From a virus (taxonomy: Duplodnaviria > Heunggongvirae > Uroviricota > Caudoviricetes): a stretch of 23,171 nucleotides of DNA. Where the stretch lies: IMG/VR virus record IMGVR_UViG_2531839128_000009, one strand, 5' to 3'. Below the pieces are notes generated by a model, which saw only the letters and a program-made list of their open reading frames with translations, had not been told where the DNA came from and searched no databases. Both the position numbers and the translations under genes were made by a program. Positions 1 to 11,342 of this stretch are shown here, piece after piece. The stretch's first letter is position 1, and each line of letters begins with the position of its first letter.

Positions 1-75
1 AAGGATAGAGGCTTTGTTGAATTTCAAGACACATTGGACATATTCAATGAACGAATGCAATCTCTAAAAAAATAA
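1..75 (+). CDS. possible 3' end of a gene starting upstream of the window (hypothetical)
   Basis: Frame is open from nt 1 for 24 codons (…LDIFNERMQSLKK) and ends at TAA 73-75. No start or RBS is visible because the 5' part would lie outside the window. Confidence 0.2.
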   Translation, partial: KDRGFVEFQDTLDIFNERMQSLKK

Positions 76-295
76 AGCCACTGAGATAGGGCTGCTCTCT
101 GTCAATTACCGCTCTTGGCACATAGCAGCCCTAGAAATGGTGACGTATAGTCATAGATGGTCGGTGGCAGGAGATGCAAATCATCTCATACAAAAATACG
201 TAAAATCAATAACGGCTAGAAATTATTCAACACTCGCACTATCGACATTTCACCAGCTAACCGTAGCACGTTCTTGCATACGACGCGCTACGGTT

Positions 296-850
296 TCATT
301 TATCTCCAACCGGAAACTTCTTATACAGTGTCGATATACCAACATCATAGATGATCGCCACCTTCTGGCGAGGAACGCCTGATGCAATTAATCGCCCGGC
401 CTGCGCCCATTGTTCTGGTGTAAGTTTGGGACGACGTCCACCAATTCGTCCCTGTGCGCGAGCAGCTTCCAGTCCAGCTTTTGTTCGTTCAATAATCAGT
501 TCTCGTTCCATTTCAGCCAGGGCACCCATCACATGAAAGAAAAAACGCCCCATCGGTGTGCTGGTATCAATAGCATCCGTCAGGCTGCGAAAATTAACGC
601 CACGTTCGCGCAACTCCTCAACCAGAATGACCAGATGCCGCATACTACGCCCCAGCCGATCCAGCTTCCAGACAACCAGAGTGTCACCTGCCGATAATGT
701 CCTGAGCAGTTTTTTCAGTCCCGGCCTTTCGGACTTTGTACCGCTTATCTTGTCTTCAAAAATCAGCTCGCATCCTGCACAGTTCAGTGCATTACGTTGT
801 AGATCTGTGTTCTGGTCATTTGTTGACACGCGTACATAGCCAATAAGCAT
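296..850 (-). CDS. serine-recombinase DNA invertase, Hin/Gin/Pin/Cin family
   Basis: Translation begins MLIGYVRVSTNDQNTDLQRNAL…, with the catalytic-serine N-terminal motif, the conserved VVWKLDRLGRS and FFHVMGALAEMERELIIERT blocks and a C-terminal HTH tail, as in small DNA invertases. Start ATG 848-850 has a GGGGAG SD 7 nt upstream; the track ORF starts 12 codons earlier at another ATG. It sits directly outside the left crossover site. Confidence 0.93.
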   Translation of the reverse strand: MLIGYVRVSTNDQNTDLQRNALNCAGCELIFEDKISGTKSERPGLKKLLRTLSAGDTLVVWKLDRLGRSMRHLVILVEELRERGVNFRSLTDAIDTSTPMGRFFFHVMGALAEMERELIIERTKAGLEAARAQGRIGGRRPKLTPEQWAQAGRLIASGVPRQKVAIIYDVGISTLYKKFPVGDK

Positions 851-904
851 GGTAGATCTCCCCGACAAAAGCAGGAATGATGCCATTTGCTTGTTATTTC
901 TGCA

Positions 905-930
905 TTTTCATAAACGTTGGTTTGGGAGAA
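905..930. other. left crossover site of the invertible segment (gix/hix-like, 26 bp)
   Basis: Plus strand TTTTCATAAACGTTGGTTTGGGAGAA; its reverse complement TTCTCCCAAACCAACGTTTATGAAAA matches the right site at 14 of 14 positions in the inner half plus central AA. Imperfect dyad around a 2-bp core, as in Din-family sites. Confidence 0.75.
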
Positions 931-1212
931 GGTGCTAACTGGGTTATGTTACCTGGAGGAATGATAATTCAGCGTGTTTATCTTGGATTTCCTGTCGGCA
1001 CCAATGTAAGACACATAACTTTCCCCCGGTCGTTTACAACAACGAACTATTCAATCTCAATTAACTGGAATGATATCGGTACTGCAACAACTGAAACACA
1101 ATCTCCAGCAAATGTGGCGGTTGTTCATCAAACAAAATCATTAACAGGGGCCAGCATCTGGCAGGCAGGTCCCGGGGGATTTAATGTGGACATTATAGCG
1201 GTGGGGTATTGA
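919..1212 (+). CDS. alternative (currently silent) tail-fiber C-terminal variable segment
   Basis: Open frame reading through the left crossover site in the same codon phase as the tail-fiber constant region. Both variable regions begin with GLGEG, encoded by the conserved inner half-site. After inversion it would fuse to fiber codons 1-119. Stop at 1210-1212. Confidence 0.7.
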
Positions 1213-1213
1213 T

Positions 1214-1642
1214 ATGTACGTATGGAGCGCTAAAGCAAATGGCTTTTTCCCCATAGCGGAGAAAGAAAAATTTGAGGCATCAGGTATGTGGCCTGATGAT
1301 GGTGTAATAGTCAGTGAAGAAGAACATAAAAAGTTATTTATGGATATTCCACCAGGAAAACAGATTGGAACACAGAATGGAAAACCAGCACTGATAGATA
1401 TTCCTCAGCCGACCAAAAAGGAATTAATCGCTATTGCTGAAGTTAAAAAATCCCAATTACGGGAAAAAGCTGACAGTGAAATATCCTGGCGTCAGGATGC
1501 TGTTGATGCTGATATCGCAACTGATGAAGAAACTTCAACTCTCACCGAATGGAAGAAATACCGTGTGCTGCTGATGCGTGTTGATACTTCAACAGCACCC
1601 GATATTGAATGGCCTACGCCTCCGGCAGTTCAGGCCAGATGA
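1214..1642 (+). CDS. tail fiber assembly protein, alternative copy
   Basis: 142-aa ORF directly after the alternative fiber segment. Its C-terminus [15 protein letters not shown] matches the C-terminus of the minus-strand copy ([15 protein letters not shown]). Confidence 0.8.
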
Positions 1643-2219
1643 CATCCGGCGCGGTGCTGGTATCTGTTACCGTCACCGCGTCAATGTAATCCAGCACGGC
1701 GTTAAGTCGGGTTGTTTCTGCCTGCGTCAGCTTCCGCCCGGCCTGTAATTTCAGTTGAATCAGACTGATGGAAGCCATTGCAGTATCCATCAGCGACTGG
1801 CGCTGTGCTTCTGCTGCATCTACTGCGGCGCTATGCTGTGCCTCGGTATCCGTCACCCATTTCTCACCATTCCATTTATCGTATGGCGTTAACGGGGCGA
1901 TAGTGGTTGTATTATCAGGGTAATCCCCCGGAGCTGTGATTTCTTTTGATTCTCCCGTTTCGGTGTTATAGACAACTTCACCGCGATGATCTGGCACATA
2001 TTCCCATGAGTTAAAATCTGCCGAACGGCAGATTGCATAACCAGCCTTATGTGTGCCAGGAGCATCTAAACAGGAATATGCGGGGATACCGACACCCACA
2101 GCAAGATATTCAATTGATGCAGAAATATACTCCCGTGTCTCACTGTCATAGTTATAAACGGTAATCTCTCCTGCCTTTGTGGCAATAAATTTATTATTTA
2201 AGATGGCGTTATACATCAT
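1614..2219 (-). CDS. tail fiber assembly protein, copy matching the expressed fiber
   Basis: 201-aa ORF; its start codon overlaps the fiber stop (ATGA). The 3' end overlaps the convergent copy by 29 bp. Confidence 0.85.
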
Positions 2220-3091
2220 GCAGCCCTCACAATGTAATTAAATGAAATATTACGTGGGCGTGTCTCTGCTGCACCGACAATACTGGTACTCAACCCCGTT
2301 GCCGTTCGTTTGTTATTTTTATTTCCTTCAATCAAACAGTTGTAATCATCATTACCAATTAACGAATTGGTGGCATCAATACTGTCCGGGGACAAGGCAT
2401 TAGTTGTGGAACTTAAAGTCAGCATCTCGTCTGAACTTGGAAGATTTTTTAATGGTGTTTCATTGCGTGAAATACCCGCGTAAAAAAAGGACTCATGCCT
2501 GTGAGCTTCAAAAGAGTCATCCTGAAGACTTAGCAAGGCTCGCCCCGCATCCACTCCACGTCCATCATCCCAGCCACGAATAAATTCACCGCGTAAATCA
2601 GGCAATTTATTGGTCGGGTAAGCCTTTGCCAGTTCCGGGTATTCTTCAGCAGAAAAAGCCGCACCATTGCATTTCAGCCAGCCTGTTGGCGGAGTGGCTG
2701 AAGGCCACGGAACAGGGACCCCAACCGGTAATGCAGAGCCTTCTCCCAAACCAAGGTTTTCGAGAGCCGTTTTCACCGCGCCATCCGATTTGATATCACC
2801 AAACGGATTCTTGCGGCTCAGGTATTCAACAGCAAACCCCGATCCCAGCAATTCAACAAAACCGGGCAGATCACCATTATCAAGCACATCCCGTTGCGTT
2901 TTGTCACTTACAAACTGGGCCAGAGCTGCAGCAATAAAGCTGGCCTGCCGAATAACCTTATTGACTTGCGCACTGGATGCTTTCCCTGCTGTAAATCCGG
3001 ATAAAAGCGCAGGCAACGCTTCCCATTCCTCCTGCGACATAACATTGGCATTCCGATCAGTTGCAAACGCTTTAAAGTCATTTTTCGCCAT
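2216..3091 (-). CDS. tail fiber protein (constant N-terminal part plus currently expressed variable C-terminal part)
   Basis: Translation MAKNDFKAF…NLGLGEG…[10 protein letters not shown]…[17 protein letters not shown]…[13 protein letters not shown], a collar-type fiber C-terminus as I recall it from P2 H / Mu S-like fibers. Start ATG 3089-3091 overlaps the upstream stop (TGATG); an alternative ATG lies at 3107-3109. The right crossover site lies inside the gene at codons about 118-125. Confidence 0.85.
2741..2766. other. right crossover site of the invertible segment (26 bp), inside the tail fiber gene
   Basis: TTCTCCCAAACCAAGGTTTTCGAGAG: half-sites flanking a central AA, with the inner 14 nt identical to the left site in inverted orientation. 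Confidence 0.75.
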
Positions 3092-3771
3092 CAGAGTAAT
3101 ACTCCCCATGCCCCTACATCAAAACCACTGATGAATTCGTTATCCATATCAAAACCAAAAAATTTTGAACCTTCCGATGGAGTTTCCACCGAAGGTGTTT
3201 CAATGCCACCCGCCCAAACCCCGGCGGCTTTTACTGTGAGATATCCCTGTTTAATTGCAGCAATTAACTCACGCGATACATCTGAAATATCAGTATCAGG
3301 AAAGAGCCAGACCGATATCGTCATGTCCTGGTTATCGACTATCTGCATTCGCAGTCCGGATCCTGCTGTCGCCGCGTCAAGAATTGCTGGAAGCGAATCA
3401 TTCCGTCCGTCCCAGTTATTAATCGCAATCTTCGCTTTAAGGATGACACGATAAGTTTCATCGCTGAGGTACATGTATCCGGAATCAGGATCGTATGGCC
3501 CCTGCCATACACCATGATCATATCCAAGCCCGTCGGTATCCCAGCTGAAATAGACACCTGAGATAGGCTGGCTGACAACACGGCTACGTCCGATCCACAA
3601 TCCAAGAATGTCAAGTTGCACACCAACCGCAGAGTCAATATCAAATGCAGTAATCAGCCCTCTGGTGGCAGCCGCAACATCAATAAGCGGCCGGGTCATC
3701 AGATCAACATGTGCAAGAAATTTAGGTTTGGTGGCGTGGTAGTTCGTGATCAGTTCGGTGTATTTGCTCAT
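3091..3771 (-). CDS. baseplate / tail protein (gpI- or Mu gp48-like by position)
   Basis: 226-aa ORF immediately upstream of the tail fiber gene, overlapping neighbours on both sides. Assignment is from synteny only. Confidence 0.65.
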
Positions 3772-4967
3772 GACTCCACCGTTATAACGATATTTTCCGG
3801 TGTACAGGACGCAGATTCGTTGTATCTGATATCAATGTTTGATGACGACAAAGCCCCCGGGGATTTCCCAATCGTCAGTTCCTGAATATCGTAATAGCGT
3901 GCATTCCCGCCACTCACCACGCCAAGATTCGCCGGTGAGTAAATGCGACTTAAAAGGACCGAATCACCAATCATCAGACTATTGATATAGTCGGAAATAG
4001 CCTGCTGGATCTGCTGCCCTATCTGTGAGGTATAACCCGTAAAAACTTTTAATTTAATCCGGGCATAAACAGGTACATCACTGGAACGCGAGAATTTGAT
4101 TACATGGGGATTGCCGTATTTATCCGGAACCGTAACGGATGTTCTACCGTGAGTGGCTGTCCCCTGGCCTTTATTCCCTCTAATAGCCTGAGCAATATCC
4201 GTCACATCACCGCCATCCACAATTACAGCAACAGAGTGTGGCGGTAACCCGTTACCGTCCTCCGAACCAGTATCGTTTTCATAGAGTTTGTGGCGGGTTA
4301 CACCGGTAACATTAGAAACAGCACCATCCAGTGCTTCAAATGGGGTTATTGATGGCAACGCAACACTTTGCGACTGGCGGATACGTAACTCAGCATCAGT
4401 TTCTGCCGGAGAGCCAACAGTAGCCGCAGCAGGATTAGTTACCGAAACCCAGCCACGGGTTGGCGTATTAATTTCAGTGATAGTTCCAGCCAGCGCCGCC
4501 ACTGCACCACTGACGGAACATGTTGCGGTCGCCATCACTGTACCATCCACGCCGACCACCACTGAAGCAGGCAAACGCCATATCACATTATTACTGTCTT
4601 TCACGCTGCCATTAATGATGGTTGTTCCGGCAGTTCCTGTAAGAAGCAAATCAACCGTAGAGTTCGTCGCGCCTTTACGTGAAATACCATTTATTTTCAC
4701 GTTACTGGTCAGTGCAGCCCCATAGCCGGTTGCCGGTGAAAAACAGTTGTAGACAGTTATCGCCATATTATTGGCATCATGAATCGCCAGCGCCGTCAGA
4801 GCCACCATCTGGCCGTCTTTGCTGTCCGGTTCGAGGTAGGCATCACTGCCATAAATCTGCTGAAAATAGCTAATCAGGGTGCTGAGTATCGTCTGATAAT
4901 CAGGCGCACTGATCCCCTCCGCGGTTACCTTTGCAGATAAACCGAGAGAATCAAGGTTCAGAGCCAT
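3768..4967 (-). CDS. baseplate J-like protein (baseplate wedge)
   Basis: 399-aa ORF with size and position of gpJ / Mu gp47-type proteins. Start overlaps the upstream gene. Confidence 0.75.
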   Translation of the reverse strand: MALNLDSLGLSAKVTAEGISAPDYQTILSTLISYFQQIYGSDAYLEPDSKDGQMVALTALAIHDANNMAITVYNCFSPATGYGAALTSNVKINGISRKGATNSTVDLLLTGTAGTTIINGSVKDSNNVIWRLPASVVVGVDGTVMATATCSVSGAVAALAGTITEINTPTRGWVSVTNPAAATVGSPAETDAELRIRQSQSVALPSITPFEALDGAVSNVTGVTRHKLYENDTGSEDGNGLPPHSVAVIVDGGDVTDIAQAIRGNKGQGTATHGRTSVTVPDKYGNPHVIKFSRSSDVPVYARIKLKVFTGYTSQIGQQIQQAISDYINSLMIGDSVLLSRIYSPANLGVVSGGNARYYDIQELTIGKSPGALSSSNIDIRYNESASCTPENIVITVES

Positions 4968-5320
4968 TACGCCTCCGATGTAACAGTCGTTATTCCATAG
5001 AGAGTGTCGATTTCAGCGGAAAACATGACACGTCGGGTCGTGGTATCCACCGTCGTATTGAAAGAGAGGATTGATTTAACGCCCCGCGTTTCCAGAATGC
5101 GTTTTCTGATCGCCAGGTTGTAAGTTTCCGGTTTTTGCCTGCCCAGCACGGACTGGATCCACGGAGTCCCCTCGGTGGTGTCGAGAAACCATTGCCCATA
5201 CCACAATTCGAATCGCGTTTTTACCGCCTGCGCCACGGCCTCCAGTGAGTTAATCAGCCAGGTGTCATCACCGCTGCCAAAGGTGTAATCGCCATCGGCG
5301 TCTTCACGTCTGTATCGCAT
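4967..5320 (-). CDS. small baseplate protein (gpW / gp25-like by position)
   Basis: 117-aa ORF between the spike-like and J-like genes. Assignment is from synteny. Confidence 0.6.
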   Translation of the reverse strand: MRYRREDADGDYTFGSGDDTWLINSLEAVAQAVKTRFELWYGQWFLDTTEGTPWIQSVLGRQKPETYNLAIRKRILETRGVKSILSFNTTVDTTTRRVMFSAEIDTLYGITTVTSEA

Positions 5321-8136: not shown

Positions 8137-8723
8137 TAGCCGCCCCCCAGTAATGACGCCACGTTACCCGTGATGCTTTTCAGCAGTGAAGTATCTGGAG
8201 GCTTGGTGGTTTTGTTGCCGCTGTTCTGTACCGCCGACGTGCTGGCCCCTTCCTTCATGTTGGTTTTATCCGCGACGGTAATCTGCTGCGTCCGGGAGAT
8301 AAGGACCTCCCTCAGGGTGAGGACGGCGGACAGGACGTTTTCGGTTGTCTTGTCCGTCGTCACTTCCAGCGCCCGGATCAACATGTTGCTGTACAGTCGT
8401 TTACCGGTTACCACATCGAAGGGGATACGGCTTTCCTGCAGATCCAGTAGCTCCTGATACGTCTGCTGAGGACTCAGGCCGAGCAGGCTGGTAGCCGTCA
8501 GATTACTGGCAAAATCCAGCAATGCGCCGCCACCGGCGAAACCAACCTCCATCACCACTTCTGACGGTTTTTTATAGGCATGATCAGCGACAGCGGCCCC
8601 AACCTCTACCGGATGCTCTGTTATTTCAAGCATATCTGTATGCTTCTCTGAAATAACAACACTGGGAACAATCATTCCTATTTTTCTGCTCTGCTGATGA
8701 AAAAGTGTAGAGAGAATATCCAC
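8136..8723 (-). CDS. tail protein following the tape measure (hypothetical)
   Basis: 195-aa ORF whose start overlaps the tape measure stop, same strand. Confidence 0.6.
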   Translation of the reverse strand: MDILSTLFHQQSRKIGMIVPSVVISEKHTDMLEITEHPVEVGAAVADHAYKKPSEVVMEVGFAGGGALLDFASNLTATSLLGLSPQQTYQELLDLQESRIPFDVVTGKRLYSNMLIRALEVTTDKTTENVLSAVLTLREVLISRTQQITVADKTNMKEGASTSAVQNSGNKTTKPPDTSLLKSITGNVASLLGGG

Positions 8724-10712
8724 TAACCCACCCTCACCTGATTACTTCGCATGACCTGAGCATTTGCAGACTGTTGCCGACGTGCAACCTCATTACCGAC
8801 AGCGTGCGGATCTCCACCACCGTAAATGTGGTAGGTATTTTGCTGGTTAACCTCTGTCATTTTGCCACTAATTCCCGCCACGGCAGCCTTATTAATCAGC
8901 TCTCGAGAATAGATATTTCTTCCATTCTCATGCTGGATAATGCTGCTCATCAATGCTGACATGGTTTGCGGATCGCTCATATTCAGGGCAGCCCGGGGAT
9001 CCACTCCCAGTCGTTGCGATACAGCCCTGATATACGCAGTTGTGTTGTTATTATCAGACGCAGGTGCCCAAGTAGAGATAATTTTCTCCACACTGTTTAT
9101 TCCCCGTCCGGCGTACAGCATTAACTGACGAGCAAGAGCCCGTAATCCATCAAAAGCAGTTTCAAATCTGGCAAATCGCCCGCCCGGGCGTTCAAGAGAA
9201 GCCCCTGCCTGACCAGCAAAATTAAGGTTTCCCGGATTGTTATTCCGTTCTCCTCGTTTCGTAGCCTGTGCATATTGTTCCGGCTCATCATCACCAAACC
9301 AGCCGCGTACCGTCCGGCCCACACTGCGGGGATCGAATCCCCAGTGCTCTTTAATCCAGTCGGCAGTACTGTTAGCGCTGTCTGTAACCATCGGCATCGC
9401 TGACGGATTTTCGCTGCCCTGATTAAGTATCTGTTTGCCGATGATGACGGCATCAGCCCAGCGGCCATCTTTGATAGCGTTGAGCAGGTCGGCGATCATG
9501 TTCAGCATTTTGCTGAATTCGCCCATCTGGTCGATGAAGTTGCTGAAATCCCACTTCAGGGACCATGATTTTGGGTCAATATTGAGCAGTTTCGCCAGCG
9601 CTTTCGCCAGTTCATTAACAGACCCTTTCAGGTCACGAACCATCTTCAGCGCGGCATCGACCTCCGGCTTCCACTTGCCCCAGTCAATCAGGCTGTCGCC
9701 GCCTTCCTTCCAGGTCTGATAGTCCTCCCACAGAAGGGCAATCCCCGCCGCCAGCGCGGTAATGAGACCAATCGGCGACATCCAGAACGTACTGTTCAGA
9801 ATGCGCAGCGCAATCGTCAGCGCGCCAAACAGCGAGATGAGCTCCCGCGTTTGCTTATCCAGCGATTGCCACCAGGTGATAAGGCTGGATGTTCCCTCAA
9901 TTAGCCTGAAGAACAGCCGCCCGATGATGTCTCCGATCGCCAGAATGCCTTTTATGGCTTTCGTCAGGGTCTGCTCGATACGAGGGAAGTTGTCCAGGAT
10001 ATGGCGGCGCAGGGTGTCCAGCGAACCCGCAAGCCCACCCGCAAGATTAGAGCCGATTTTGTCACGGGCCATGCCTGCCATCGCGCCGAACTCGCGCAGG
10101 GAGGTCATGAATTTGTTGGAGCTTCTGGCCGCCTCGTCAGCATTGAAGCCGATAGCTTTCGCCATTGCGCTGTACTGCCCGGAGCCCCCCCCCCACACCC
10201 CGGCGCATCGCCATAAGGGTATTTTCGTCAATGCCCAGCATCTGCGCATACTGGTTAGCCCGGTAATACGGCATGCTGCTGAGCTTCTGGCCGACGCCCG
10301 TAAAGATAGCGGCCATGTCGCGCATGTTACCGCTGGCGTCACGGGTCTGTACCCCCAGACGATTCAGAAATCCCTCCGCCCCGGGGTTATTACGGATAAA
10401 ACGGGCAAGGCTCTCCAGTGACCCGCGCGCAGCGTCCACGCTGCCGCCAACCTGCGAAACCGCATAGCCAATAGACTGAATTCCCTGGACTGTCGCGCCG
10501 GTGCGCTGTGACGCCCAGTAAAGATTATCCAGGCCGGAGGCGATCTTAGCCGTGAAGGCCACCACGGACAGCGCAGCTCCTTCAACGGCCAGTCCCATTT
10601 TGATGACATTTGCAGTTGTACCGGCGAGGACAGAACCGAACTTTTTCGCTCCTGCATCATCCACACTGAAGCCAAGCGAGACGAGGAAATCTTTAATAGT
10701 TTCAGCGTTCAT
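8723..10712 (-). pseudogene. tail tape measure protein, frame interrupted in a homopolymer tract
   Basis: Two overlapping minus-strand ORFs (10137-10733 and 8723-10342) in different frames both give tape-measure-like sequence, and switch frame exactly at the C10 run 10185-10194. Removing one base restores a continuous roughly 660-aa protein reading …MAMRRGVGGGSGQYSAMAKAIGF…. Start ATG 10710-10712 has a GGAGAGAGGA SD. Confidence 0.8.
10185..10194. repeat. C10 (G10 on the coding strand) homopolymer inside the tape measure gene
   Basis: Ten consecutive C counted on the plus strand; they encode Gly-Gly-Gly in either frame. A length of 9 or 12 would be in frame. Confidence 0.9.
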
Positions 10713-10947
10713 TATCCTCTCTCCATTTCTCAATGCGCCGCTGGTTATCCGCTTTTACCGCCAGATGGTCATTCAAGAGAGCAATGTCATACAAATCGAC
10801 AGAGCCATCTTTAAGTGCTGTATAGGGAATTAACCCGGCGTCAACCGGATTGAGAAGGTAGGACAGCCCGTCCGGCAGGCTGTTAAACGTCAGCCCTGTT
10901 GCAGGCTCTGCGTCGTGCTGGTAAGGGGTGTAGGCAAAAAATTTCCC
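10702..10947 (-). other. -1 programmed frameshift signal and extension frame of the tail chaperone
   Basis: Coding-strand GGGAAATTTTTTG (plus 10935-10947) contains two overlapping heptamers, G_GGA_AAT and T_TTT_TTG, in the zero frame 16 codons before its stop. The -1 frame is open from there for 79 codons to TGA 10702-10704, overlapping the tape measure start. Predicted fusion is about 210 aa. Confidence 0.7.
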
Positions 10948-11342
10948 AGCGAATCGGCGACCACCCGCGCCACCAGATGAAGCATGACCAGCAAGTCAAT
11001 ATCATCAAACATCAGTTCGCCCTGGGTAAATACCGGAACCCATCCGTCCATATGACGCCGCGACACCACCGCAAGACAGGGATGAATAATCGCATCGGTG
11101 TCATCTTCGGTCAGGGAAGACAGTTCCTCAGCGATACGCGGGAGCATGGTTTCAAACACCGGTTTTAACTGCTCGAATTTCACGGTGTCGATTTTGCCGT
11201 CAGCAGGCAAACGGGAGCGAATGCTCCCGAAATCTGACATCATTCCCGCCAGTACCGGCAGAAGTTTGCGGGTCACTTTCAGCTGGTCAAAAACGCTGAG
11301 TTTTGCCACGCGATATTTCACGCCTTTGATTTCGAATTCCAT
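10890..11342 (-). CDS. tail assembly chaperone (zero-frame product)
   Basis: 150-aa ORF between the tube and tape measure genes, the conserved position of the G/GT-type chaperone. Confidence 0.8.
   Translation of the reverse strand: MEFEIKGVKYRVAKLSVFDQLKVTRKLLPVLAGMMSDFGSIRSRLPADGKIDTVKFEQLKPVFETMLPRIAEELSSLTEDDTDAIIHPCLAVVSRRHMDGWVPVFTQGELMFDDIDLLVMLHLVARVVADSLGNFLPTPLTSTTQSLQQG

Follow-up and report, generated by a model that had tools for sequence, protein, structure and literature searches.

A probable Pin-type invertible tail-fibre switch of the e14 P-segment kind at the end of the tail operon in a myovirus-type Escherichia coli prophage

In the G segment of phage Mu and the C segment of phage P1, served by Gin and Cin, respectively, a constant fibre part (Sc) is combined with one of two variable parts (Sv or Sv'), each having its own chaperone gene (U or U'), and the invertase gene lies just outside the segment. 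The closest described system to the locus analysed here is that of the cryptic e14 prophage of E. coli K-12, which is arranged stfP-tfaP-tfaE-stfE-pinE. Both orientations of the e14 segment are found together in clonal K-12 cultures (PMC4272514), and overproduction of PinE lifts the inverted fraction to 49%, whereas deletion of pinE locks the segment (PMC12529663). Here, we examine a virus-derived DNA stretch of 23,171 nucleotides (hereafter the window), in which a first-pass annotation had read the interval 296-3109 as a Gin/Pin-type host-range switch. That interpretation is supported by the crossover sites, the invertase, the in-frame fusion, and the occurrence of both orientations at homologous loci. 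The locus is very probably a two-state, Pin-catalysed inversion switch of the Gin/Hin/Cin/Pin family, sitting where the tail operon of a myovirus-type E. coli prophage ends, and follows the same logic as the Mu and P1 segments.

The proposed crossover sites are two 26-bp sequences in inverted orientation, one proximal to pin (905-930, TTTTCATAAACGTTGGTTTGGGAGAA, central dinucleotide 917-918) and the other proximal to the fibre (2741-2766, TTCTCCCAAACCAAGGTTTTCGAGAG, central AA 2753-2754). They had been described as sharing 14 inner positions and bracketing about 1.8 kb, and direct comparison bears out both statements: the reverse complement of 2741-2766 (CTCTCGAAAACCTTGGTTTGGGAGAA) equals 905-930 at 21 of 26 positions, the central TT/AA together with the inner half-site accounts for 14 contiguous identities, and the sites lie 1810 bp apart, with 1836 bp separating the crossover centres. 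Read on opposite strands, the sites have the layout TTCTCCCAAACC-AA-CGTTTATGAAAA and TTCTCCCAAACC-AA-GGTTTTCGAGAG; each consists of two imperfect 12-bp half-sites and a 2-bp core, and this asymmetric core is equal in both sites, which are inverted relative to each other. The perfect inverted repeat within the pair extends over 16 bp (917-932 and 2739-2754), and the pair tops the inverted pairs listed by a repeat search of 200-3300 (21 nt, 95% complementary). Across the 23 kb, the 10-mer CCCAAACCAA (at most one mismatch) matches solely at the two crossover sites, and a near-palindromic 26-mer built on the shared half-site (at most three mismatches) has one match in the window, at 2741-2766, and none in 100 shuffles. 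Moreover, the sites are those of K-12 e14: the reverse complement of 905-930 (TTCTCCCAAACCAACGTTTATGAAAA) is exactly its pin-proximal site and 2741-2766 is exactly its stfP-side site, and the two include the published e14 repeats TTGGTTTGGGAGAAGG and CCTTCTCCCAAACCAA (PMC12529663).

The fibre gene (2216-3109, minus strand), an open reading frame of 297 aa with a Pfam Collar domain, closes the baseplate/tail operon and is contiguous with DUF2612 and Baseplate_J genes. RefSeq homologues begin the fibre at the ATG at 3091 (291 aa) rather than at 3109, and its constant N-terminal part (2755-3109, minus strand) is about 119 aa long when counted from 3109 and 113 aa when counted from 3091. The region 2740-5000 is 99.8% identical to the homologous locus L009, and 2767-2818 forms a linker common to the window and e14-type prophages, with 95% identity to K-12 stfP over 2739-2818. 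A mosaic junction inside the E-type tail was considered and rejected, as the best BLAST hits end at 2818, which is the outer edge of this conserved linker.

The segment had been described as holding the expressed fibre tail with its assembly gene and, in opposite orientation, an alternative tail with its own, and the open reading frames are as claimed. The E-type tail, currently fused, comprises 178 aa from GLGEG (2216-2754, minus strand) and carries a Collar domain (E=3e-15) besides a weak match to S_tail_recep_bd. Of 164 positions compared with the K-12 StfE fragment, 106 are identical, and the distal part of the tail is diverged. Its assembly chaperone is TfaE-like (1614-2219, minus strand, 201 aa, Caudo_TAP E=5e-32) and has 200 aa from the second ATG, 179 of which are identical to K-12 TfaE (89.5%). 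At its start, the TfaE-like gene overlaps the stop of the fibre gene, and at its 3' end it shares 29 bp with the other tfa gene. As a separate observation, the two half-cassettes reassort where the convergent chaperone genes overlap. The P-type tail, parked and unfused, comprises 97 aa from GLGEG (917-1212, plus strand) and is assigned to Gp53-like_C with 27.5 bits against a Pfam cutoff of 24.9; K-12 StfP carries the same domain, and the two tails are identical at only 26 of 92 positions. The chaperone for this tail (1214-1642, plus strand, 142 aa, Caudo_TAP E=3e-34) shares 136 of 142 residues with its homologues in L011 and L002 and 44 of 125 with K-12 TfaP. A Caudo_TAP gene is translationally coupled to each tail, and since the tails fall in different domain families, the earlier view that they are unrelated is fair. 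The search for receptor-binding homologues was productive for the E-type tail, which matches the collar regions of T4 gp37 (2XGF) and gp12 as well as a C-terminal ...RNI(A/S)FNYIVR motif; for the 97-aa P-type tail, a PDB sequence search gave no match apart from a lone spurious hit to a ribosomal protein (E=0.63). Outside the pin-proximal site lies a conserved leader, ATGATG plus 11 codons (877-916, plus strand, MMPFACYFCIFIN), which reads in frame into whichever tail is parked beside pin. All 14 sequences compared have the in-frame ATGATG, even P2-like prophages whose spacer has diverged, and leader and parked tail together make a 111-aa open reading frame (877-1212, plus strand) that is annotated in RefSeq.

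Just outside the segment, as the first-pass annotation had stated, lies a full-length gene for a small serine DNA invertase, pin (296-850, minus strand, 184 aa), with Pfam Resolvase (N-terminal, E=1e-51) and HTH_7 (C-terminal, E=5e-13) domains. Its product shares 174 of 184 residues with K-12 PinE (94.6%) and matches Mu Gin (3UJ3) over residues 1-181 with E=6.7e-94. Homologous loci annotate the same gene as pinE, 555 nt, and because every one of them is annotated so, the most likely start is at 850 (MLIGYVRVST, 184 aa) and not at 886. Inactivation of this reading frame, which had been named as evidence against a working switch, was looked for, and pin proved intact with the catalytic Ser9 in MLIGYVRVST. 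In addition, Pin Q150, R153, and L154 (QAGRL) align with the QxxRL of Hin in 1HCR (Q151, R154, and L155 in the Hin residue numbering of the 52-mer), and K46, K47, and R50 correspond to basic residues in helix B of Gin. Conserved in Pin are thus the residues that contact Fis and the enhancer (Hin Q151, R154, and L155, together with basic residues at 47, 48, and 51), which are reported as unique to Fis-dependent invertases (PMC3798978).

The 5' part of pin is where a recombinational enhancer would be expected. By eye, two putative Fis-binding sites were picked out there, within 693-757: GAAGACAAGATAAGC (743-757, pin nt 94-108) and GCTCAGGACATTATC (693-707, nt 144-158), both of the form G-N3-A-N5-T-N3-C, as is the Mu gin stretch aligned with nt 94-108 (GAAGATAAATTAAGC). 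The enhancers of the Gin/Hin/Cin/Pin family have a Fis-site spacing of 48 bp. The candidate sites are 50 bp apart, and about two such matches are estimated to occur by chance per 555 bp; at this chance frequency and this spacing, an enhancer cannot be called, and the pair stays a candidate. Pin positions 60-217 have two differences from K-12 pinE in an alignment read by eye. A scan of 150-3300 for sigma-70 promoters and terminators found none 5' of pin or of the parked open reading frame, and promoter-like sites in this interval were fewer than in shuffles.

Inversion of 918-2753 in silico keeps the reading frame and turns the 297-aa fibre into one of 216 aa, so the earlier count of a 179-codon tail exchanged in frame for a 98-codon one, both beginning GLGEG, agrees with the computed 178 and 97 residues plus stop. 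Natural genomes contain both states. Three near-isogenic E. coli pairs (strains 571/613, GF75/GF8, and ETEC-2264/L3_CS7_E2980) have the homologous segment precisely inverted at the sites between flanks that are 99.97-100% identical, and in natural inversions a SNP in the inner half-site moves with the segment. One of these pairs has the window's prophage type, and that type occurs in both orientations (L007 vs L009). Across complete E. coli genomes, 546 have the E-type fusion junction and 23 the P-type junction. The records vB_EcoM-606R2 and 611R5 were considered as evidence on orientation in packaged virions and rejected, since they represent predicted prophages excised together with host flanks, and their invertase is truncated.

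Taken as a mechanism, Pin dimers would bind the two 26-bp sites and then synapse, and Pin would cleave the DNA at the central AA/TT dinucleotide, after which strand exchange would leave 918-2753 inverted; in the Gin/Hin/Cin/Pin family this reaction proceeds on an enhancer that is bound by Fis and lies towards the 5' end of the invertase gene. In the sequenced orientation, the constant N-terminus (2755-3091/3109) is joined to the Collar, gp37-like tail, followed by the TfaE-like chaperone; after inversion, the same N-terminus would carry the Gp53-like_C tail in frame, followed by the different chaperone. We infer that the window copy, assembled in a single orientation, does flip, that Fis is required for this, and that each tail recognises a receptor of its own. 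Given two alternative fusions, a lysogen population should yield virions of two kinds that differ in receptor specificity, and this would amount to host-range bet-hedging.

One may argue that the inverted repeat plays no part in recombination and reflects chance or the shared coding sequence for GLGEG, a peptide motif that is conserved in both tails and overlaps the repeat. However, the match runs outward beyond the coding overlap into half-sites of the family type, the sites equal those of e14 and adjoin a Gin-like invertase, the palindromic 26-mer is absent from the shuffles, and the breakpoints of natural inversions fall precisely at the sites; these breakpoints effectively refute the argument, and its probability is negligible. 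It is also conceivable that the switch is a frozen relic, in which sites and pin look intact but inversion has ceased in this host, for instance because pin is silent or the enhancer defective, so that the fibre would be permanently of the E type. The window does show a single orientation, and the related records ON470579 and ON470588 carry a truncated, 315-nt "DNA invertase", which indicates that locked copies exist in this prophage lineage. Nevertheless, the window's own pin is full length and retains the catalytic and Fis-contact residues, its 5' region is almost that of K-12 pinE, both sites equal functional e14 sites, and the same prophage type is found in either orientation, all of which make a relic very improbable.

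The switch could also, or mainly, serve the lysogen as a phase-variable defence, if the parked tail were produced from the ATGATG leader, masked its receptor, and blocked the adsorption of other phages. This proposal draws on the conserved in-frame leader start, diverged P2-like spacers included, on the annotation of 877-1212 as a CDS in RefSeq, and on the report that the leader plus StfP-tail product of inverted e14 (the StfE2 chimera) blocks T2 adsorption (PMC12529663), the window being in the equivalent state with the leader joined to a Gp53-like_C tail. Against it, the scan described above placed no promoter-like site upstream of 877-1212, the spacing between AGGA and the two ATGs is only 0 or 3 nt, and the leader is short, its conservation perhaps reflecting a regulatory sequence of pin instead. 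In addition, the divergence of the P-type tail from K-12 StfP means that the T2 result is not transferable to the window, and as the prophage looks complete, the classical host-range role suffices. We consider a defence role unlikely, and the more specific proposal that 877-1212 is translated as a free Gp53-like receptor-binding domain protecting the lysogen by receptor masking rather improbable. If true, a single inversion would change both the host range of the virion and the phage resistance of the lysogen, mirroring the StfE2 claim with another tail allele in an apparently complete prophage.

Returning to the host-range switch, the locus is an unremarkable and seemingly intact example of the already known Pin/P-segment switch of E. 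coli prophages, as the first-pass annotation had recognised in calling this a known class. Many sequenced E. coli genomes already contain its components. Its further suggestion that the variable domains might be new was wrong. The window fibre shares 288 of 291 residues with a RefSeq protein of strain QML220601, the parked-tail open reading frame 109 of 111 with its counterpart in strain WS0115A, and this same frame 97 of 99 with the C-terminal end of a fibre that is fused in strain MINF_2E; such 97-99% identical proteins annotated in RefSeq E. coli genomes settle the question of novelty. An Rfam scan of the whole window gave no match. The element that carries the switch is not e14 itself but a SEN34/606R2-like myovirus prophage with a full structural module, which implies a transfer of the pin-segment module from one tail type to another. 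The locus matters little beyond correct annotation, yet the labels are worth setting right: the locus should be named as a Pin-type invertible fibre switch and the "gp53-like" 111-aa open reading frame as the parked alternative fibre C-terminus, and two forms of the fibre should be annotated, of 291/297 aa and about 210/216 aa. It also offers a clean case of a pin-plus-segment module moving among Mu/e14-like, P2-like, and SEN34/606R2-like tail chassis, and is of use in predicting or engineering the host range of E. coli prophages.

Compared with e14, the window has the same gene order and orientations, identical 26-bp sites, the same pairing of a Collar tail with a Gp53-like_C tail (StfE/StfP), and the same pin-side leader and fibre-side linker of about 80 bp; Pin and the TfaE-like chaperone are 94.6% and 89.5% identical, respectively. 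The MG1655 reference has e14 in the opposite orientation, whereas the window has the E-type tail fused. The E tail is 65% identical to that of e14 (106/164), while the P tail (26/92) and its chaperone (44/125) are distant alleles within the same Pfam families, and the 16-bp repeats enclose 1806 bp in the window against a reported 1797 bp in e14. In addition, the constant fibre part and the tail/baseplate are of the DUF2612 type rather than the DUF2313/YmfQ type of e14, and the window prophage has a full structural module whereas e14 is defective. By sequence comparison, the locus can thus be placed as a member of the e14 P-segment module family with a different P cassette allele on a different phage chassis. 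Pin-bearing P2-like E. coli prophages (571/613 and GF75/GF8) have a segment 97% identical to the window's over 1846 bp, with both cassettes and chaperones, and are seen in both orientations; they differ in a more distant invertase (197 aa, 158/180 identical to the window Pin), in the outer half of the fibre-proximal site (TTCTCCCAAACCAAGGTATGCGAGAA), and in a constant part that is a long P2 H-type fibre (454 aa fused). In Mu, the distance from crossover point to invertase start is 67 bp, as in the window, but the site sequences are different, the G segment is about 3 kb, and the fibres are far longer with other domains (Gp34_trimer, Phage_fiber_2, and gp37_C), the window fibre being very short (291-297 aa). 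Salmonella flagellar phase variation by Hin at hix sites involves the same recombinase subfamily and Fis/enhancer mechanism, and the Fis-contact residues are conserved in Pin; Hin, however, flips a promoter from within its segment, whereas the window locus swaps coding sequence and keeps its invertase outside.

The Gin/Pin-type invertible host-range switch proposed for this locus in the first-pass annotation is real and was read correctly, as seen from its anatomy, its reading frame, the identity of its crossover sites with those of prophage e14, and natural inversions at homologous loci. The five ORFs in 296-3109 reproduce the gene arrangement described at that stage. The invertase gene pin (296-850, minus strand; Resolvase and HTH_7 domains) encodes 184 aa from MLIGYVRVST; its longest ORF begins at 886, and all annotated homologues begin at the ATG at 850. 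On the plus strand, an ORF of 111 aa (877-1212), with its last ~87 residues matching the Pfam domain Gp53-like_C, carries the alternative tail parked beside pin (the P tail) and is followed at its 3' side by a Caudo_TAP tail-fibre assembly gene (1214-1642). Convergent on this pair is a second, TfaE-like Caudo_TAP gene (1614-2219, minus strand), which serves the fibre ORF (2216-3109, minus strand; 297 aa, Phage Tail Collar domain) with the tail currently fused to the constant part (the E tail). The start of each chaperone gene overlaps or abuts the stop of its own fibre tail, and the two convergent genes share 29 bp at their 3' ends (1614-1642). A C-terminal motif conserved in both chaperones, ...DTSTAPD(I/V).WP..., is coded in ~1580-1642 on opposite strands.

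Direct alignment of the pin-proximal site (905-930) with the reverse complement of the fibre-proximal site (2741-2766) confirms two inverted 26-bp sites with 14 shared inner positions: 21 of 26 positions match, and the 14 contiguous identities span the inner half-site together with the central dinucleotide. The perfect inverted repeat is 16 bp long (917-932 / 2739-2754) and ranked first among the inverted pairs listed for 200-3300 in a repeat search, and a near-palindromic 26-mer derived from the common half-site, with up to 3 mismatches allowed, has one match in the window and none in 100 shuffles. The core 10-mer is present at these two places only in the 23 kb scanned, which argues for a simple two-site, two-state arrangement and rules out a multi-site shufflon. 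When 918-2753 was reverse-complemented in silico, the fibre ORF stayed open, passing from 297 aa to 216 aa, and the junction was located in the GLGEG common to both tails. The proposed in-frame swap of a 179-codon tail for a 98-codon one, both from GLGEG, therefore holds, with 178 residues in the E tail and 97 in the P tail once the stop codon is set aside.

Since a single window cannot display two orientations, homologous loci were examined in 5,426 complete E. coli genomes. In three genome pairs (strains 571 and 613, GF75 and GF8, and ETEC-2264 and L3_CS7_E2980), both members carry one prophage at one shared position; their flanks are 99.97-100% identical, and the segment is reversed exactly from site to site. 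The prophage of the third pair is of the window's own type and shares its PinE, DUF2612 and baseplate proteins. In 571/613 and GF75/GF8, the inner half-site has a G/T polymorphism (GGTTTGGGAGAA vs GGTTTTGGAGAA) that provides a natural marker: it travels with the segment and changes sides, pin-proximal vs fibre-proximal, between orientations. Hence, the crossover lies outside that base, which fits exchange at the central dinucleotide. Of the two fusion junctions, the E-type (linker plus E-type tail) occurs in 546 genomes and the P-type (linker plus the window's P-type tail) in 23. For e14, clonal K-12 cultures contain the segment in both orientations side by side (PMC4272514), 49% of segments are inverted when PinE is overproduced, up from a lower level, and the segment is locked once pinE is deleted (PMC12529663).

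Classical Pin inversion is the most likely mechanism. Pin dimers would bind both sites and gain activity on an enhancer, occupied by Fis, within the 5' part of pin. Strand exchange at the central AA/TT would then flip 1836 bp, so that the late operon ends in the other receptor-binding tail with its chaperone. We infer that the window's own copy flips, that this depends on Fis, and that the two tails differ in receptor. Truncated invertases in related records might suggest that the switch is a locked relic, but this is unlikely because pin and both sites are intact here. ON470579.1 and ON470588.1, GenBank 'complete phage genomes', contain the host genes yfhH, pgpC and tadA together with an invertase gene truncated to 315 nt. 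Both appear to represent prophage predictions rather than sequenced virions, and their switch is probably locked.

A different role for the parked tail is raised by an in-frame ATGATG and a leader of ~13 codons (MMPFACYFCIFIN...) at window 877-916, just outside the pin-proximal site, which make the parked tail a complete ORF in every locus. The leader is present in all 14 sequences examined (including L001-L009 and L011-L013, which cover K-12 e14, the P2-like prophages, strains QML220601, ETEC-2264, MINF_2E, L3_CS7_E2980 and WS0115A, and the two GenBank records) and is kept in the P2-like prophages despite a diverged spacer (MMPLARYLCIFIN...). Given this conservation, and the parallel with the e14 equivalent StfE2, which a 2025 paper claims to block T2 adsorption (PMC12529663), the parked tail might be translated from the leader as a receptor-masking defence protein. 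However, a promoter scan of 150-3300 gave no promoter support and the window's tail allele differs from that of e14, so we consider this improbable.

The tails exchanged by Pin inversion, which the first-pass annotation had thought possibly new, are not: RefSeq contains near-identical proteins, and across 1846 bp the invertible segment shares 97% identity with that of P2-like prophages. The whole fibre has 288/291 identities with its RefSeq counterpart in strain QML220601, the parked ORF 109/111 with that in strain WS0115A, and the P tail 97/99 with the C-terminus of a fused fibre in strain MINF_2E. A search for homologues of both tails succeeded for the E tail, which resembles T4 gp37 and gp12 in its collar region and C-terminal ...RNI(A/S)FNYIVR motif; for the P tail, no relative among solved structures was detectable by sequence search.

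What remains of the window forms a myovirus structural module (including portal, Mu-F-like, major capsid, DUF3383, tail assembly chaperone, baseplate hub and plug, Baseplate_J and DUF2612 proteins), with ~97% identity to prophages of 154 complete E. coli genomes and ~82% to Salmonella phage SEN34, whereas the e14 baseplate is of a different kind (YmfQ/DUF2313). The interval 10343-10889, which separates the gene for the tail assembly chaperone (10890-11342, Phage_TAC_15) from a tape-measure-sized ORF (8723-10342), holds only overlapping ORFs assigned to no family (10137-10733 and 10364-10675); a programmed-frameshift extension of the chaperone usually sits at this position. The pin-plus-segment module, to window 2818, is found beside Mu-like tails (WS0115A) and also beside P2-like tails; it has thus been exchanged between phage chassis. 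Together with a linker of ~52 bp (window 201-2818), it occurs at 93-97% identity in three tail types: Mu/e14-like, P2-like and the window's SEN34/606R2-like myovirus. In Mu/e14-like loci the likeness ends at 2818; in P2-like loci it ends at the fibre-proximal site (2765), whose outer half there (TTCTCCCAAACCAAGGTATGCGAGAA) differs from the window's. The switch thus travels as a cassette.

Within the segment, the E and P halves reassort as well. In QML220601 and ETEC-2264, only the E half matches the window, from ~1580 rightwards, and MINF_2E matches 912-2257, the P half plus the TfaE-like gene, with a different allele in the distal part of its E-type tail (~2257-2545). Reassortment occurs near the convergent tfa overlap (~1580-1642), where the region of the chaperone C-terminal motif may be a recombination hotspot. 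The DNA beyond pin is different in every genome (window 1-295, WS0115A locus 1-3572, QML220601 locus 164-2261, locus L014 1-3134): Avs2 in WS0115A, an AAA ATPase and HNH endonuclease pair in QML220601, the yfhH host flank in ETEC strains, remnants of another prophage in strain 12089, and, in the window, only the 3' end of an ORF (1-75) and a hairpin with a 13-bp stem (259-271 / 283-295) directly after the pin stop. This prophage end resembles a variable spot for cargo or defence.

The two 26-bp sites match those of the e14 P segment in K-12 MG1655 at every base and include its published repeats TTGGTTTGGGAGAAGG and CCTTCTCCCAAACCAA (PMC12529663). The invertase has 174/184 identities with PinE, gives an end-to-end alignment with Mu Gin (PDB 3UJ3, E=6.7e-94), and starts 67 bp from the crossover point, the same distance as in Mu. 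It retains the active-site serine and the residues unique to Fis/enhancer-dependent invertases (PMC3798978), namely the QxxRL patch of DBD helix 1 in the Hin alignment and the basic residues of helix B in the Gin alignment. Candidate Fis-like sites at pin nt 94-108 and 144-158, 50 bp apart, are no more numerous than expected by chance, and the 5' pin region holding them is nearly unchanged from K-12 pinE. The chaperone at 1614-2219 has 179/200 identities with TfaE and the fused tail 106/164 with the StfE fragment; the parked tail (26/92) and its chaperone (44/125) represent no more than distant alleles of StfP and TfaP but share their Pfam families, which makes the pairing of Collar and Gp53-like_C tails that of e14. 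Relative to pin, the TfaE half is opposite in orientation to the MG1655 reference; thus, the window represents the 'inverted' state, with the E-type tail on the constant part. The switch, carried by a common E. coli prophage, is a textbook system, and all of its components are already in public genomes.
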